Positions 1 to 6,270 of a stretch of 6,270 nucleotides of DNA are shown piece by piece. Both the position numbers and the translations under genes were made by a program. The number at the start of each line of letters is the position of its first letter. Position 1 is the first letter of the stretch. This DNA comes from a virus (taxonomy: Duplodnaviria; Heunggongvirae; Uroviricota; Caudoviricetes), in the IMG/VR virus record IMGVR_UViG_2778261462_000002, positions 1 to 6,270 of that record, one strand, 5' to 3'. Below the pieces are notes generated by a model. It searched no databases. It saw only the letters and a program-made list of their open reading frames with translations, and was not told the origin of the DNA.

Positions 1-251
1 GCTTTGTTGTAGGTGGACCAGTTGGTGATTCTGAACTTTTGCTTTGCCACGGAATGGTCTGTGTTGTCGGGAGGATACGTGATCTGATCCTTCAACTCAG
101 CAAAAGTTCGATTTATTCAACAAAGCCGCAGGCAGTAGAAGAATTTTATGATGCGTTTTCTCTGGAAAGCATGGAGCCAGGTAGCACCATCCGCATTGCT
201 ACAAAGGGCGACCTGGTAATCATGATGTATCGGAAAGAGGAAGCCAAATGA
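1..251 (+). CDS. Hypothetical protein, 5'-partial. The frame is open from the window start, so the real start may lie upstream; the first in-window start candidate is TTG at 39.
   Basis: Frame 3 has no stop from position 3 to the TGA at 249-251. Its stop overlaps the ATG of the next gene (ATGA), suggesting translational coupling. No recognisable motif. Confidence 0.35.
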   Translation, partial: FVVGGPVGDSELLLCHGMVCVVGRIRDLILQLSKSSIYSTKPQAVEEFYDAFSLESMEPGSTIRIATKGDLVIMMYRKEEAK

Positions 252-439
252 ATAAAGCCTCCCCAGTAGAGTTAAGAGTGAGCATCGAAATGGCGCATAG
301 CCTCGCTCAAATTGGAGTCAGGTTTGTACCAATTCCAGTAGAAACAGATGAAGAATTTCAAAGGTTAGCGGCATCGGCAGCACAAAAGCTGGAAATCATG
401 GCGGAGAAAGCAGAGAAAGCGGAAGGAGACGGACAGTGA
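248..439 (+). CDS. Small conserved prophage protein, 63 aa, which I recall as DUF1382-like from lambdoid prophage early regions.
   Basis: ATG at 248 preceded by GAGGAAG; 4-nt ATGA overlap with the upstream ORF; its TGA overlaps the GTG of the downstream gene (GTGA). The N-terminal sequence MNKASPVELRVSIEMAHSLAQIG resembles small lambdoid proteins from memory. Confidence 0.5.
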   Translation: MNKASPVELRVSIEMAHSLAQIGVRFVPIPVETDEEFQRLAASAAQKLEIMAEKAEKAEGDGQ

Positions 440-1299
440 GTGAAACTAACTATCAGGAGTTGCGTGAAGCGGCAGAGAAAGCAACGTGGGGAGACTGGGA
501 CTCATATAAACCACACCGTGGCGCACGTGGTTATGAGGTCCGACTAAGTAGTCAGGCCATTGCGCAACACGTTCTGAAAAACAACGCTGAATTTATTGCT
601 GCCTTTAATCCAAAGGTTGCTTTGGCACTACTGGATGAACGGGAAAGGAACCAGCAATACATCAAATCCCGCGACCAGGAGAACGAGGAAATTGCGCTAA
701 CGGTAGGGAAGCTGCGCGTTGAGCTGGAAGCAGCAAAAAAGCGCATAGCAGAACTGAAAGCCGAACCTGTAAGCCAAACTTACAAGTTGCCTCCCCTGTC
801 ATCCAACGAAGTAAACGACGCGGCATGGAAATTACACAACATGCTGACTGAACACGGCCCGCTAAATGGGCGTCAGTTCAACAATCTGAAAGGTTGCTTC
901 TATGAGGCATTAAAGGTCGCAATGCGCAACTATCCGGTTACTCCGGATAGTTCGGCGCAAGCACCAGGGAAGGGGGGCTTCCCCGGAGAGCGGATCCGAA
1001 TTAAGCCGCATGTTTACCGTGAACTGGTTAACCGCCTCCACGATACAGCGATCAAGTGTGCTGGCACCCAGCAATTACGGGAAAGAATTAGCCGCGTTTT
1101 GGGCGAAGTTATTACACCAGATCGTCATAAACAAGCCGAGAAAAGCGGCCTGGAAAGGAGTCATCTTGAGGCGGCATTAAACATTAAACCGGGGCATACG
1201 CTAGGTGTCATTGATGCCATGTTGGTCCATGAAATGGCAAGGGCTTTATTGCCGCTGGTGGCTGAAAAGCATGAGGCGGACCATGCCAACGAAAGCTGA
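436..1299 (+). CDS. ead/Ea22-like family protein, 287 aa.
   Basis: GTG start with AAGGAG about 9 nt upstream. N-terminal ELREAAEKATWGDW, then NPKVALALLDERE and a coiled-coil KRIAELKAEP, which is the typical N-terminal signature I recall for Ea22-like proteins; the C-terminal half is variable and unassigned. Confidence 0.65.
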   Translation: MSETNYQELREAAEKATWGDWDSYKPHRGARGYEVRLSSQAIAQHVLKNNAEFIAAFNPKVALALLDERERNQQYIKSRDQENEEIALTVGKLRVELEAAKKRIAELKAEPVSQTYKLPPLSSNEVNDAAWKLHNMLTEHGPLNGRQFNNLKGCFYEALKVAMRNYPVTPDSSAQAPGKGGFPGERIRIKPHVYRELVNRLHDTAIKCAGTQQLRERISRVLGEVITPDRHKQAEKSGLERSHLEAALNIKPGHTLGVIDAMLVHEMARALLPLVAEKHEADHANES

Positions 1300-1469
1300 G
1301 TTACAGGCGCGCATAGAGATTCTTGAAAAAGAGAATGCGAGTCTAACTCCTGGAGGTTTCTTGTGTCAGATCGAAATATAGCAGCTAAAAGCCAGGAAGA
1401 GCGAGACAAGGTGAACGTAGCGGCGTTGCTTACAAACCCCGCTTTCACAAACTATGCCTTTTCAATGTA

Positions 1470-1489
1470 TACTGTATGAATAAACAGTA
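1470..1489. promoter_or_regulatory. LexA (SOS) box TACTGTATGAATAAACAGTA upstream of humD.
   Basis: Perfect CTGT-N8-ACAG core with AT-rich spacer and TA flanks (consensus TACTGTATATATATACAGTA). It overlaps a TATACT -10-like hexamer at 1468-1473 and sits 19 bp upstream of the humD ATG. Confidence 0.75.
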
Positions 1490-1507
1490 TCATTGAGGTA
1501 AAACGCT

Positions 1508-1897
1508 ATGGGCTTCCCTTCTCCTGCGGCGGATTATGTTGAAAGCCGAATTTCTCTTGATCAGCAACTAATCAGGCATCCATCAGCAACCTACTTCATG
1601 CGGGCGGCAGACAGCCATCACCGTGAGGGAATATTGCAGGGTGCTTTGCTGGTGGTTGATTCCTCGCTTACTCCGGTTGATGGTTCGCTGCTTGTCTGCG
1701 CTATGGAGGGTGAATATCGCATAAAGAGATACCGAAAGTATCCGCGCCAGCACCTGGAGGATTTAAGCACCGGGAAGAAAGAGGCGTTACCAGTAGATGA
1801 CGATGGTTACACGGGGAGTAATGCTGTTTTTGGTGTGATCACTCATGTCATCAATGATGTCCGAAGTGGGGAATTTGATGATTGTCCAGTGATTTAA
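1508..1897 (+). CDS. humD: HumD-like UmuD' analogue (S24 peptidase, LexA-like C-terminal domain) lacking the cleavable N-terminal arm.
   Basis: GAGG 9 nt upstream of the ATG, and an in-frame TAA at 1499-1501 prevents any N-terminal extension. The protein starts MGFPSPAADYVE, matching UmuD from Gly25 onward (UmuD ...QCGFPSPAADYVE...). A Ser (AADSHH) and a Lys (RIKRYRK) are retained at dyad-equivalent positions; VFGVITHV matches UmuD VFGVVIHV. Confidence 0.85.
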   Translation: MGFPSPAADYVESRISLDQQLIRHPSATYFMRAADSHHREGILQGALLVVDSSLTPVDGSLLVCAMEGEYRIKRYRKYPRQHLEDLSTGKKEALPVDDDGYTGSNAVFGVITHVINDVRSGEFDDCPVI

Positions 1898-1940
1898 GCT
1901 GCAAAGTGCTGGTGCTTTATGCCTGTGAAGTTTACAATTG

Positions 1941-1960
1941 TGTGCACATAACGAGTACAC
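1941..1960. promoter_or_regulatory. Candidate Phd/Doc operator: perfect palindrome TGTGCACA (1941-1948) plus GTACAC half-site (1955-1960), just upstream of phd.
   Basis: Palindromic elements lie between a TTTACA -35-like hexamer (1931-1936) and the phd SD GAGG (1961-1964). Phd-family antitoxins autoregulate through palindromic operators. Confidence 0.4.
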
Positions 1961-1969
1961 GAGGTGTTT

Positions 1970-2191
1970 ATGCAATCCATTAACTTCCGTACCGCGCGTG
2001 GCAACCTTTCTGAAGTGCTCAACAATGTTGAGGCCGGGGAAGAGGTTGAAATCACCCGCAGAGGCCGTGAGCCAGCAGTAATTGTCAGCAAGGCTACTTT
2101 CGAAGCCTACAAAAAAGCGGCGCTGGATGCTGAATTTGCATCCCTGTTTGACACCCTGGACTCCACCAACAAGGAACTGGTTAACCGATAA
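1970..2191 (+). CDS. phd: Phd antitoxin (Phd/YefM family), 73 aa.
   Basis: ATG at 1970 with GAGG 5 nt upstream; the ORF-track GTG at 1964 is probably not the real start. [73 protein letters not shown] matches P1 Phd as I recall it. Its TAA overlaps the doc ATG (TAATG). Confidence 0.9.
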
Positions 2192-2571
2192 TGAGGCATA
2201 TATCACCGGAAGAACTGATAGCGCTTCATGATGCGAATATAAGCCGCTACGGCGGCCTGCCGGGAATGTCAGATCCGGGCAGGGCAGAGGCCATTATCGG
2301 GAGAGTCCAGGCCAGAGTTGTGTACGAAGAGATCACCGACCTTTTCGAAGTCTCCGCCACCTACCTGGTGGCTACGGCGAGAGGGCATATATTCAATGAT
2401 GCCAATAAGCGTACCGCGCTAAACAGTGCGCTGCTATTTCTACGCCGTAACGGTATACAGGTATATGATTCTCCCGTGCTGGTGGAACTTGCGGTGGGGG
2501 CCGCAACTGGTGAAATCCCCGTATCTTCAGTAGCGGAAAAACTACGTGAATTATTTGGTCCCAATATTTGA
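2191..2571 (+). CDS. doc: Doc toxin (Fic-fold kinase, death-on-curing), 126 aa.
   Basis: Fic/Doc motif HIFNDANKR (HxFx[DN][AG]NKR) is present; the N-terminus [22 protein letters not shown] matches P1 Doc from memory; translationally coupled to phd. Confidence 0.92.
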
Positions 2572-2574
2572 AAA

Positions 2575-2600
2575 GAAGCCCGCTCAACCAGGCGGGCTTC
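2575..2600. terminator. Hairpin terminator between convergent operons: 9-bp perfect stem GAAGCCCGC / GCGGGCTTC with 8-nt loop.
   Basis: On the minus strand the stem is followed directly by UUUUCAAAUAUU, a good intrinsic terminator for the dre operon. On the plus strand the U-tract is about 15 nt away, so it is weaker for doc. Confidence 0.6.
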
Positions 2601-2654
2601 CTACTATCACTCAATGATTTTTTCTGCTGTCAGCCAGCTAATTCGGTGATGTTT

Positions 2655-3455
2655 TTAGGCGTCAGCATCAGCATCTGCTTCCACATCAGCCACGGCTTCA
2701 TCGGACGGTTCTTCTTTGGCCTGCTCTGCAATCGCCGCACGGCATTTGGCCCTTGCTGTGGCGATTGCTTCAGCACGCACATCATCAGGAATCGTTGACG
2801 TGATATACATATCCAGTTCTTCGGCGCGGAACACTGTTTGGTCCAGATATTCGCGTAGCATCCAGGTAAATTCGAAATCACACGCGATAATCTCTGCGCT
2901 ACCTTCCGCACCATTAGGGAAGTGGATAAACGCTTGTTTGGCTAAACCAATAACACGACATGCAGTAGCATATACAGCAAGCAATAAATTTTCGTTTTCG
3001 CATGAAACGGGCTGGTTTACGCCAGTAATAATGCCATTAATGGCCCGGTCGAACGGCTTGTAGTTCGATATGCGCTCTACACGCCATATCCCCAAAAGAG
3101 AGCCATTACGGAATATGACAGGAGTAACAGCTAATTGAAGCTCACCGATCAGCCGCTGCGCAAATGAATAATTATCAAACAAGCCAATCGGCGGGCAATG
3201 ATATGTCTGCGCCAGTTTGATCAGTTCGTCCTGTGAATACTCTTTATCACGAACAGTGAAGAACATACGTTTGCCTGTCTCACCATTACGCCAGATAGCA
3301 ATCCCTTCCTCTAACAGAAGTTCTTCGTCAAAGCCAAAATAGGCCATAACAGTGCGTTCAATAGTGACTAATGGCAGTGACATATCTGGTTCGATTTCAA
3401 CAACCAGACCGTTACGCAGGCGGTATAAAATACGTTTTGCGTTTTCCGTGCTCAT
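2655..3455 (-). CDS. Hypothetical protein X, 266 aa, with a poly-acidic C-terminal tail (EEPSDEAVADVEADADADA).
   Basis: Start chosen at the ATG at 3455 (MSTENAKRILYRL), 13 nt after the dut stop with AAAGGA upstream. The longer 332-aa ORF-track version would overlap dut by about 200 nt and is rejected. No motif I can assign. Confidence 0.55.
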   Translation of the reverse strand: MSTENAKRILYRLRNGLVVEIEPDMSLPLVTIERTVMAYFGFDEELLLEEGIAIWRNGETGKRMFFTVRDKEYSQDELIKLAQTYHCPPIGLFDNYSFAQRLIGELQLAVTPVIFRNGSLLGIWRVERISNYKPFDRAINGIITGVNQPVSCENENLLLAVYATACRVIGLAKQAFIHFPNGAEGSAEIIACDFEFTWMLREYLDQTVFRAEELDMYITSTIPDDVRAEAIATARAKCRAAIAEQAKEEPSDEAVADVEADADADA

Positions 3456-3468
3456 ATCCTTTCTCTGC

Positions 3469-3963
3469 TTATAACTTTTCGTACTTAAGCTGTGAACGCT
3501 TAATTTCAAAGCGACCTTCCGATGTGCTACCAAAGCCACCAGCACCTCGTTCTGTTTCATCGAGTTCATCAACTTCGACCAGCGAGACTTGTTCCACACG
3601 CTCAAAAATGCCTTGCATGACAGCCATTCCAGGCTTGAGGCAAACGCCTTCACCGCCGGGATCAGTAATCAATTTTGCCATGATTTCACCGCGATAATCG
3701 GAGTCGATAATTCCTACGCAGTTAGCCAGGCGCGTATGTTTTTTGCAGCCCAATCCGGATCGCGGATAGAGTTTCAGACACCAGCCGGGCGGGATCTCCA
3801 TAGCCAGTCCGGTATACACCCACCAGCTTGAGGAAATTGCACCATTGCTATCGACGCATGGTGTTATTTCAACAGCCTCAAAATCCATTGCTGCCGATCC
3901 TGCGGTGGCATAGAACGGCAGTTTTGCACCAGGATGCAGGCGCTTCACTTTTACGTTAATCAT
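3469..3963 (-). CDS. dut: dUTP diphosphatase (trimeric dUTPase), 164 aa.
   Basis: Start at the ATG at 3963 (MINVKVKRLHPGAKLPFYATAGS). dUTPase motifs present: PRSGLG, GIIDSDYRGE, RGAGGFGSTS. The N-terminus aligns with E. coli Dut (..KEFPLPTYATSGSAGLDL..). The start overlaps the upstream gene's stop by 8 nt (ATGATTAA). Confidence 0.85.
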   Translation of the reverse strand: MINVKVKRLHPGAKLPFYATAGSAAMDFEAVEITPCVDSNGAISSSWWVYTGLAMEIPPGWCLKLYPRSGLGCKKHTRLANCVGIIDSDYRGEIMAKLITDPGGEGVCLKPGMAVMQGIFERVEQVSLVEVDELDETERGAGGFGSTSEGRFEIKRSQLKYEKL

Positions 3964-4447
3964 GCTTCTTTGCTCTTTTGGTGAAGGTGTAAATTCGACG
4001 TTTAATATGCGGGGCAGTCGGTACGGATACGTTTGTGGATTCGATAATGCCTTGCTCTTCAAGAGAGCGAACGGCACGCAGGAACTGAGACGCATCGCCG
4101 CCACCGGACAGCCAGAATTTACGGGCGTAAATGCTGCCGTTACGGATAATTTCAGCAACGACACGAGACTGGGTTTGTGTTTCACGATAGGCAAACAGTT
4201 GCCGGGCTTCTTCCGGCGTAATAGCCAGTTGATAGCCTTTCCCCTTATGGGCGCGAATAAAACCAAACGACACCAGGTGTTTTAGTTCCCTGCGCGTAGT
4301 CTCATAACCGTATTCCTGTATCTGGAGATTGAGATCGGCGGGCTTTAGCCATGCTTCCGGCGACTCAGTAAGAAGCGCCAGCAACTTACCGGATAGCTCA
4401 GGGGAGGAAGACGGGTAACAGTTAAGAGATGGGTAATAGTGTTTCAT
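3956..4447 (-). CDS. Hypothetical protein Y, 163 aa, possible tandem winged-helix DNA-binding protein.
   Basis: ATG at 4447 with AAGGGGG SD 6-7 nt upstream; 4-nt ATGA overlap with Z's stop. Segments ETTRRELKHLVSFGFIRAHKGKGYQLA and SQFLRAVRSLEEQGIIES look like wHTH recognition regions; this is a composition-level call only. Confidence 0.55.
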   Translation of the reverse strand: MKHYYPSLNCYPSSSPELSGKLLALLTESPEAWLKPADLNLQIQEYGYETTRRELKHLVSFGFIRAHKGKGYQLAITPEEARQLFAYRETQTQSRVVAEIIRNGSIYARKFWLSGGGDASQFLRAVRSLEEQGIIESTNVSVPTAPHIKRRIYTFTKRAKKHD

Positions 4448-4788
4448 TTGCGCCCCCTTACTGGATAATGAGAGCGGGCATCAACCGGAGCAATGAATCC
4501 GGTTGTAGGGCGGGAAAATACGAGATCAATCTTCTCGGTCATGGCGCGATAGTTTTCCTGATAGTGGGCCAGGAGTTTTTCAGCAGCAATGACGGTTACT
4601 CGCCGGACGTAGCTTTCAGCTTCGCCCAGGTTTGACCATTTCTTTTCGAGGGTAAGTACAGGTACGGTCTCAAGCCCTGTCATGATTCCGAACACCACGA
4701 CAGCCTCGCCGCGCTTAACGCCAGCAGCAAAGGTTACGGTGTAACCGTCAACCGTGAAACGCCTTGATTCCGTGATACGACTCTGCAA
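4444..4788 (-). CDS. Hypothetical protein Z, 114 aa, with a putative TTG start.
   Basis: The first start codon after the in-frame stop at 4816-4818 is TTG at 4788, with GGGGG 4 nt upstream. The first internal ATG is codon 36, so the start is uncertain. No recognisable motif. Confidence 0.45.
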   Translation of the reverse strand: MQSRITESRRFTVDGYTVTFAAGVKRGEAVVVFGIMTGLETVPVLTLEKKWSNLGEAESYVRRVTVIAAEKLLAHYQENYRAMTEKIDLVFSRPTTGFIAPVDARSHYPVRGRK

Positions 4789-4860
4789 AGTACCCCCAGA
4801 AAAAACAGGCGTACTTTACAGTAAAATGCAGTGTTAAAAAAGGGTGTTAGAAATTTAATC

Positions 4861-5889
4861 TCATGAATCCATGAGGCGGCTATTGGCACCTGCTGTCACA
4901 CCGCCACGACGAAGATAACGCATCAGTGTTTCGGGCTTCTTCCATGTACCTTCCTGCATAATTTCAACCAAAGACACCTGTTTTTCAGCCATATCTATGG
5001 CGGCACCAACACGCGCACTGTGGCCTGTCCACGTCCGGTAACGGCCTTTATTGGGGGTGGCATCACTCTTACCCAGCAGCGCCCAGGCGTCACTGAAAAT
5101 CTTCTCCATCGCGGGCGCGGTTAATGGCGTGGTGGTGATCCGCGCTTTGTTGCTCCGGTGTACTGGCGGGAAAAGTATCGCATCCGGGTGATCACGTAGT
5201 CCGGACGCGTCCAGCCAGTCATTGAGAACCGCAGTTGTCCGGCGGGAGAGCACCTTATCAAGTCCGGCGGCGGTCGTGATGGTTTTGGTGTGGGATACGT
5301 GAAGCGTTACAGTGTCACCAGTCTGTTCCAGATCGCGAACACGCACGCGGGACATTTCAGCCATACGCAACAGGGTATTGTAGGCCAGGAACAGAAAAGC
5401 CCGGTTGCGCAGATCCACCAGCCTGTCAGAGCGGGAGAGCAGCACGTCGAGCAGTTTCAGGTCATCCCAGCGCAGGGGCACTGCCTGGCCTGTGCGTTCG
5501 CCTTTTTCGGTTGCAGCTTCGCGCCGGATGCGCCGCATCGCCAGGGATACGCTTTTGTCATCAGAGAGTTGCGGCAGTCCGCATTGTGACAACAGCATAT
5601 TGAGCATGGCGTAATGCTTTTCAATGGTGGTTGAAGCCAGATCCGCATCATGCAGTTGAAGCAGGTATTCGCGGGCAGCTTCCGGGGAGATCGGAAACCA
5701 CGCAAGACCACGAGCGTGGCACCATCGCGCCCAGGAGTGAAAGACCAGGCGCAGATCGCGCAGTGTATTAGGTGAGTAAGCGCCCTGGTCATTAAGGAAC
5801 TGCATGAAATTTTTGGCGGCTTCCTGGTACTCAGCACCAATATCACGAAGAAACATGCCAGAATTACCGGAGATAATAAGTTTACTCAT
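4861..5889 (-). CDS. dre: Cre-family tyrosine site-specific recombinase, Dre-like, 342 aa, with the catalytic set intact.
   Basis: ATG at 5889 with AGGTGA SD. Aligns along its length with P1 Cre as I recall it: SVSLAMRRIRRE vs AVSLVMRRIRKE; DLRNRAFLFLAYNTLLRMAE vs DIRNLAFLGIAYNTLLRIAE; HTKT vs RTKT; WTGHSARVGAAIDMA vs WSGHSARVGAARDMA; and the C-terminal W...MRYLR carrying the Tyr nucleophile. A rox-like site lies 152 bp upstream. Confidence 0.88.
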   Translation of the reverse strand: MSKLIISGNSGMFLRDIGAEYQEAAKNFMQFLNDQGAYSPNTLRDLRLVFHSWARWCHARGLAWFPISPEAAREYLLQLHDADLASTTIEKHYAMLNMLLSQCGLPQLSDDKSVSLAMRRIRREAATEKGERTGQAVPLRWDDLKLLDVLLSRSDRLVDLRNRAFLFLAYNTLLRMAEMSRVRVRDLEQTGDTVTLHVSHTKTITTAAGLDKVLSRRTTAVLNDWLDASGLRDHPDAILFPPVHRSNKARITTTPLTAPAMEKIFSDAWALLGKSDATPNKGRYRTWTGHSARVGAAIDMAEKQVSLVEIMQEGTWKKPETLMRYLRRGGVTAGANSRLMDS

Positions 5890-6041
5890 GTAATCATTTC
5901 ACCTCTATAAATTGGTGTCGCTACGCGAAAAAACAAAAAATGACAGGCTAGTTATCCGTGAGAATTTAAAATTTAAGCCCTTGATTCGAACCATGACTTT
6001 TTGAGCCTGTCAATACTGATCGTTTGATCATTATTATATAC

Positions 6042-6073
6042 TAACTTTAAATAATGCCAATTATCTAAAGTTA
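6042..6073. other. rox-like recombination target: TAACTTTAAATAAT-GCCA-ATTATCTAAAGTTA (14-bp inverted arms, 4-bp asymmetric spacer).
   Basis: Arms match as inverted repeats at 13 of 14 positions (A vs G at arm position 9). The sequence differs from rox as I remember it (TAACTTTAAATAATGCCAATTATTTAAAGTTA) only at 6065, C for T. Flanking C6041/G6074 extend the palindrome. It sits upstream of the Cre-family gene, as loxP does for cre. Confidence 0.7.
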
Positions 6074-6143
6074 GAAGGGGAAAAATTTTTTTTTGATACA
6101 ACGGATCAAGTGAACAAAAAAGAAACCGTTTGATAAGCGGGAT

Positions 6144-6157
6144 GGCACTGTTGCAAA
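6144..6157 (+). repeat. IS26 left terminal inverted repeat, GGCACTGTTGCAAA.
   Basis: Exact 14-bp IS26/IS6-family terminal IR as I recall it, located 63 bp before the transposase ATG. Confidence 0.85.
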
Positions 6158-6206
6158 TAGTCGGTGGTGATAAACTTATCATCCCCTTTTGCTGATGGAG
6201 CTGCAC

Positions 6207-6270
6207 ATGAACCCATTCAAAGGCCGGCATTTTCAGCGTGACATCATTCTGTGGGCCGTACGCTGGTACT
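6207..6270 (+). CDS. tnpA: IS26 transposase Tnp26 (DDE transposase, IS6 family), N-terminal 21 codons only (3'-partial).
   Basis: Translation MNPFKGRHFQRDIILWAVRWY is the IS26 Tnp N-terminus as I recall it. Confidence 0.9.
   Translation, partial: MNPFKGRHFQRDIILWAVRWY

Follow-up and report, generated by a model that had tools for sequence, protein, structure and literature searches.

An intact P1-type humD gene with its own LexA operator, encoding a predicted pre-truncated UmuD′ analogue, in an IS-bounded D6/P1-like segment

The question raised by this locus is whether a tailed-phage sequence carries, under the control of the host SOS response, a mutagenesis subunit of the UmuD′ type that is made in its truncated form from the outset. 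The window, i.e. the whole stretch of DNA that was analysed, comprises positions 1 to 6,270 (6,270 nucleotides) of the IMG/VR virus record IMGVR_UViG_2778261462_000002 (Caudoviricetes). An initial annotation had described positions 1470–1897 as an SOS-controlled, pre-activated UmuD′ analogue, and this interval coincides exactly with the span from the first base of the LexA box to the end of the humD stop codon. The feature is an ordinary intact P1-type humD and is already known: a curated model exists for the family, and the operator has been annotated. Comparison with known sequences makes it highly probable that the window holds an intact P1-family humD allele with its own LexA operator, the product being a LexA-gated, pre-truncated analogue of UmuD′. 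The coordinates of this gene, its control region and its neighbours are given in Table 1.

Table 1. Features of the window (positions of the 6,270-nucleotide stretch)
Feature	Position	Strand	Basis or remark
IS903-like (IS5-family) element end	1-127		P7 IS903 matches left end
DUF1382 gene	248-439		Domain match; typical lambdoid/P1 accessory gene
Ead/Ea22-like gene	436-1299		Domain match; typical lambdoid/P1 accessory gene
hot remnant (Pol III theta homologue), 38 codons	1363..1479	+	TGA stop inside LexA box
Predicted −35 of proximal humD promoter, TTCACA	1444..1449	+	Consensus scan
Predicted −10, TATACT, overlapped by LexA box	1468..1473	+	Consensus scan
LexA (SOS) box, TACTGTATGAATAAACAGTA	1470..1489	(.)	Core match, shuffle test, umuDC operator arms, annotated P1 site
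Shine-Dalgarno, GAGG, 9 nt ahead of ATG	1495..1498	+	Read from sequence; conserved in P1-like alignment
In-frame TAA, two codons before start codon	1499..1501	+	Read from sequence
humD CDS, 129 aa, predicted pre-truncated UmuD′ analogue	1508..1897	+	ORF, P1 HumD identity, NF051876, UmuD′ structures, Peptidase_S24, dN/dS
HumD-family C-terminal tail, NDVRSGEFDDCPVI, aa 116-129	1853..1894	+	Alignments; not in UmuD/UmuD′
Pphd promoter (−10 TACAAT at 1933-1938)	1910..1938	+	Alignment to P1 annotation
phd antitoxin	1970..2191	+	PhdYeFM_antitox; canonical neighbour
doc toxin	2191..2571	+	Fic/DOC; canonical neighbour
Dre-type (phage D6 Cre-like) tyrosine recombinase	4861-5889	-	
rox-like site, TAACTTTAAATAATGCCAATTATCTAAAGTTA	6042-6073		One mismatch to D6 rox, right arm
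IS26 left end, GGCACTGTTGCAAA	6144-6270		tnp26 ATG at 6207

The encoded protein is identical to P1 HumD (GenBank AF234172; McLenigan et al., 1999; Lobocka et al., 2004) at 127 of 129 residues (98%), and the two genes share the same start context. The NCBIfam equivalog model NF051876 ("HumD family translesion DNA polymerase") matches the window protein end to end (residues 1–129 on model positions 1–129 of 129) with a score of 217.2 bits against a cutoff of 120, whereas E. coli UmuD reaches 98.7 bits on the same model and stays under the cutoff. The opposite pattern is observed with the UmuD subfamily model NF007621, on which the window HumD scores 87.9 bits, under the cutoff of 110. On these scores, HumD is best regarded as a sister family and not as UmuD proper. 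The Peptidase_S24 domain (PF00717) is matched with 36.1 bits against a cutoff of 23.3, and the best solved relatives are UmuD′ chains (1umu and 1i4v) and full-length UmuD (8gmt_B), with E values of about 1e-22 to 1e-23 (4e-23 for UmuD′). The sequence identity to these solved UmuD′ structures and to P1 HumD settles both the fold and the family.

The S24 fold is thus shared with E. coli UmuD and UmuD′, and the N-terminal 115 residues of HumD align to UmuD′ without rearrangement at 45% identity. The columns of the UmuD Ser60/Lys97 dyad are kept, being occupied by Ser36 and Lys73 of the window HumD (1613–1615 and 1724–1726, respectively). Unlike UmuD, HumD lacks the 24-residue N-terminal arm with its Cys/Ala-Gly self-cleavage site (Cys24-Gly25 in E. 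coli) and has a four-residue insertion before the last strands as well as a 14-residue C-terminal extension. HumD Gly2 falls on residue 25 of full-length UmuD (8gmt_B) and on residue 1 of 1umu_A, a UmuD′ chain; a global alignment with MG1655 UmuD likewise places Met1 opposite Cys24 and Gly2 opposite Gly25. HumD therefore starts exactly where cleavage generates UmuD′, and the proposal that the product begins at the equivalent of Gly25 is borne out by the alignments with P1 HumD and E. coli UmuD.

Since a TAA triplet lies just before the ATG, separated from it only by the codons AAC GCT, no longer form of HumD exists in this frame. The initial annotation had argued from this stop codon and had allowed for an overlooked upstream start or exon; no peptide resembling the UmuD N-terminal arm was found in the three upstream frames of humD, and the in-frame stop together with the three-frame translation excludes an extended product, whether read in a different frame or initiated further upstream. 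Comparison with five P1-like alleles gives dN/dS values of 0.04–0.08, indicating that humD is under strong purifying selection; relative to P1, only two amino-acid changes are present against 10.5 synonymous differences.

The LexA core CTGT-N8-ACAG occurs as a single copy in the window (1472–1487), with 0.12 copies expected per shuffled window. The full box, TACTGTATGAATAAACAGTA, agrees with the consensus TACTGTATATATATACAGTA at 17 of 20 positions, with three mismatches and a perfect core, and none of 200 dinucleotide-preserving shuffles yielded a match as good. Its 3′ end lies about 18–19 nt ahead of the ATG at 1508, in line with the 19 bp first proposed. The operator of the E. coli umuDC operon (MG1655), TACTGTATATAAAAACAGTA, ends 19 nt ahead of the umuD ATG (against 18 nt for humD), and both of its 8-bp arms recur unchanged in the humD box, the difference being confined to the central four bases. 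By these comparisons, the regulatory layout of humD is that of umuDC minus the first 24 codons.

A consensus scan predicts a sigma-70-like promoter with an 18-nt spacer and agreement at 10 of 12 consensus positions, and the LexA box covers the last four bases of its −10 hexamer, consistent with the overlap that had been claimed. The scan returns two promoter-like sites in this region against 1.6 expected. In seven aligned P1-like upstream regions the T, C and A of the predicted −35 are invariant, TATACT or TGTACT directly abuts CTGT in all seven, and the string TACTGTA...ACAGTAT is invariant while the flanks diverge. The P1 record predicts a further promoter, PhumD, approximately 480 bp upstream and inside lxr, a region that is missing from the window. 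The upstream open reading frames (248–1299 and the hot remnant) are co-directional with humD, and the stretch from 1299 to 1470 has no predicted terminator, so that LexA-independent read-through into humD could occur. The P1 late promoter LPhot, which lies upstream of humD, is not conserved in the window and was rejected as a driver of humD; the P1 homology begins only at the hot ribosome-binding site.

The P1 box, TACTGTATAAATGAACAGTA, occupies the same place, about 19–20 nt before its ATG, and differs from that of the window at two central positions. The P1 GenBank record annotates it as the 'LexA binding site in the regulatory region of lxr and humD'. In P1, humD and its divergent partner lxr have this box in common, whereas lxr is absent from the window; upstream of 1460 the window is of the RCS47/D6 type (hot side) and not of the P1 type, and the downstream genes (dut, dre and rox) are D6-like and unlike those of P1. 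According to the same P1 record, HumD "functionally complements E. coli UmuD'"; phd and doc are placed immediately downstream. A role of this kind is also stated in the title of the widely cited defining paper (McLenigan et al., 1999). Given the 98% identity to P1 HumD, the window allele can be expected to complement in the same way. Passages in the literature describe HumD as an "already activated" UmuD (PMC7092418) and humD as a LexA-regulated SOS gene (PMC9603915), and the phiKO2 record annotates a LexA site ahead of its UmuD-like gene.

Conservation of this arrangement was assessed in a curated set of 17 phage and plasmid loci including the window (40–99% protein identity) and in 80 IMG/VR loci taken from among at least 462 relatives. 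The design, consisting of an upstream LexA box, a pre-truncated start and no umuC found nearby, recurs in 96 related phage and plasmid loci. In the curated set, 15 of the 17 loci start with MG(F/Y)PSP at the beginning of the tblastn match, the exceptions being phiKO2, which starts with GTG, and pAEv1818, with MGMPKFASPA. A perfect CTGT-N8-ACAG is found upstream in 15 of the 17, within 20 bp of the start in 13 of these; the box lies at 45 bp with tandem boxes in phiKO2 and at 263 bp, before a small upstream ORF, in HK140, while the Aeromonas locus pAEv1818 has one core mismatch and APC_JM3.2 carries a mutated box. All 80 IMG/VR loci have an ATG followed by GFP, GYP or DFP. A perfect box is located 16–19 nt upstream of the start in 65 of them, and all but one of the others have a box of the type CTGG-N8-ACAG either 43–44 or approximately 285 nt upstream, bringing the loci with a LexA box to 79 of 80 when the CTGG variants are counted. 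The distance from box to start remains at 16–19 nt (IMG/VR loci) or 15–20 bp (curated loci, counted to the end of the box) in most relatives while the flanks diverge, and the alignments provide a strong phylogenetic footprint that points to a functional LexA site.

More distant members of the family include N15 gp26, phiKO2 gp23 and the genes of HK639, HK140 and others, which show 64–70% identity, have the same or an equivalent start (MGFPSPA in N15, HK639 and HK140; GTG in phiKO2) and share with it both the C-terminal tail and upstream LexA boxes. Some of these loci differ in their boxes, which are tandem or of the CTGG type, or in a small ORF that separates box and gene. As a separate observation, the humD homologue in lambdoid and N15-like relatives (IMG/VR loci L085–L099, together with phiKO2 and HK140) is either transcribed divergently from a dinI-like gene or follows closely behind it, and the two share tandem LexA boxes, one of them of the CTGG-N8-ACAG type; in one subgroup the small ORF between the LexA boxes and the humD homologue has about 80 codons.

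Unlike the E. coli umuDC operon, humD has no umuC found downstream of it. A tblastn search with E. coli UmuC found no homologue in the window or in the flanks (1.5–5 kb) of 97 family loci, and the E. coli control was matched. With no umuC linked to humD, UmuC must be supplied by the host, in which umuC is itself LexA-controlled. The mobile-element-borne MucA, ImpA and RumA of plasmids are, like HumD, LexA-controlled accessory subunits of Pol V-type polymerases, but they are full-length, need cleavage and are encoded in an operon with their own UmuC-type polymerase.

In the SOS/Pol V system LexA acts as the repressor, RecA* triggers its cleavage and UmuD′ dimers bind UmuC. For the window, the preferred reading envisages that in an undamaged cell a host LexA dimer would occupy the box and cover the −10/start region of the proximal sigma-70 promoter, this overlap keeping humD off. 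On DNA damage, RecA* would drive the self-cleavage of LexA and humD would be transcribed. The product would be made as Met-Gly-Phe-Pro..., beginning at the site of UmuD cleavage, and would therefore need no processing; it would then dimerise and join the SOS-induced UmuC of the host to give a Pol V-like translesion polymerase, possibly earlier than the host UmuD-to-UmuD′ step permits. HumD is reportedly able to dimerise and to bind UmuC and RecA filaments, and is said to be poorly expressed, with good complementation only from a high-copy plasmid.

The initial annotation had held that the element supplies the active subunit without the RecA-mediated cleavage step. This stands as far as the pre-truncated start is concerned, but the system is not RecA-independent: as is well established for Pol V, RecA* remains necessary both to inactivate LexA and to activate the UmuD′2C complex, so that HumD would remove only the UmuD-to-UmuD′ delay and not the dependence on RecA. 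HumD in this sense illustrates how mobile elements can shortcut a host checkpoint, the transcriptional SOS gate being kept and the slow post-translational gate removed, in elements that depend on the UmuC of the host. The gene is carried by phage-plasmids and by IS-bounded fragments that are also found on conjugative plasmids. That cassettes of this kind could increase mutagenesis after DNA damage in clinical Enterobacteria is an existing idea and not a new one.

The C-terminal tail is among the most conserved segments of HumD. It has the family consensus NDxRSGEFDDCPV-I/M, is retained in 80 IMG/VR loci, has near-invariant residues at N116, D117, R119, D124, D125 and P127, and is kept even in relatives of only 40–50% identity (Hafnia and Aeromonas phages). 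Its acidic end, (E/D)-F-D-D-C-P-V-(I/M)-COOH, loosely resembles the tip of E. coli SSB (MDFDDDIPF) in the pattern (E/D)FDD-x-P-x-hydrophobic. Such conservation could reflect a docking peptide with a partner-binding or targeting role of its own, standing in for the lost N-terminal arm, and SSB-interacting replisome or repair proteins could be the partners.

Downstream, the 72-bp spacer between humD and phd, a distance that is the same in P1, is 98% identical to the P1 spacer and contains Pphd. The −10 hexamer of Pphd is TATAAT in P1, and the operator region differs by one base (GTGCAC in the window, GTACAC in P1). The initial annotation had singled out the placement directly upstream of phd-doc as notable. 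However, P1, P7, RCS47, SJ46, JL22 and others have humD immediately before phd-doc as their normal arrangement, and a "humD-phd-doc cluster" is named in a passage of PMC9603915; a functional link between humD and phd-doc was accordingly rejected as something new, the adjacency being canonical in the P1 lineage. It is not general in the family: the gene lies beside tail-fibre, integrase, par or dinI genes in N15, phiKO2, HK639, HK140 and other lambdoid phages, the P1-like CMS-2020a and PhiR41_1 have no phd downstream of humD, and phd is found within 900 nt of humD in at least 42 of the 80 IMG/VR loci, some of whose contigs end early. The linkage is thus lineage-specific and not family-wide.

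No terminator was found between the humD stop and phd (1897–1970), where the fold z-score of 0.88 is no better than that of shuffles. With no terminator separating the two, SOS transcripts may read through into phd-doc, and SOS-driven transcription of humD could in this way couple the addiction module to DNA damage. That HumD is more than 'UmuD minus 24 residues', with the tail acting as a docking peptide, or alternatively that SOS transcription couples to phd-doc, is considered unlikely overall.

A rather improbable alternative is that HumD mainly modulates the SOS or replication machinery of the host, by titrating UmuC/UmuD or by acting on the replisome with phage Hot and SSB, and that the complementation of UmuD′ is a side effect of overexpression only. 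The lack of a linked umuC in the flanks covered and the conserved tail that UmuD′ does not have are compatible with such a role, as is the fact that humD travels with hot, which encodes a Pol III theta homologue, in P1-type genomes. Native expression of HumD is also reportedly poor. In distant members of the HumD family (loci L005–L016) the Ser column of the catalytic dyad changes to Thr, Gln or Tyr and the Lys column to Met, Arg or Ala, a drift that also speaks for this alternative. It fits a protease fold with nothing left to cleave, and suggests relaxed selection on the protease chemistry of a protein that is made already 'cleaved'. According to a passage in PMC10695390, P1 humD is dispensable for lytic growth, which also accords with a modulating role. 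Against this, the UmuD′-like portion of the protein aligns over its 115 residues without rearrangement, the operator geometry copies that of umuDC and, according to the P1 record, HumD can functionally complement UmuD′.

The surroundings of the gene show the window to be a mosaic segment of the D6/P1-like type, with an IS903-like end on the left and an IS26 end on the right. At the left end (1–127) a terminal inverted repeat is present, which we take to be IS903-like; the same left junction is found in S. Typhi pK91 and in E. coli C9 plasmid B, which has a partial IS5-family transposase there. An open reading frame at 39–251 runs across the IS junction and was rejected as an artefact. The stretch from the Ea22-like gene to hot is much shorter than in Shigella D6-like phage-plasmids, several genes being missing. 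Relative to RCS47, hot has suffered a 217-bp deletion between TACAAA repeats that is common to D6, and an extra 13-bp deletion, unique to the window in comparison with D6, shifts its frame. Given the IS boundaries, the mosaic character of the segment and the decay of hot, it is uncertain whether humD is expressed in its present host.

That the window humD is a passenger relic in an IS-bounded piece of a D6/P1-like phage-plasmid, intact through recent descent and no longer expressed or selected in its present replicon, is the least probable reading, since the IS ends, the truncated and frameshifted hot, the loss of lxr and of the distal PhumD annotated in P1 and the presence of the same module on non-phage conjugative IncFIB plasmids are outweighed by the intact ORF, Shine-Dalgarno sequence, box and promoter-like hexamers, all of which recur unchanged in the complete phage genomes RCS47 and D6, and by the two amino-acid changes against 10.5 synonymous differences from P1; it bears in any case on the present-day use of the element and not on what the element is.

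No full-length match to the window was found among phage, plasmid and E. coli collections. For the best matches in these collections, coverage of the window and identity are 85% and 97.6% with S. Typhi pK91 and its siblings, 83% and 97.5% with E. coli C9 plasmid B, and 85% and 97.8% with phage-plasmids of Shigella dysenteriae that measure approximately 80 kb. The same module is present in Shigella D6-like phage-plasmids and, flanked by IS elements, on conjugative plasmids of the IncFIB type, S. Typhi pK91 among them. Downstream of doc the gene order is an isaA-like gene, dut, two unknown genes, the Dre-type recombinase gene and the rox-like site, with IS26 beginning only 70 bp beyond the latter.
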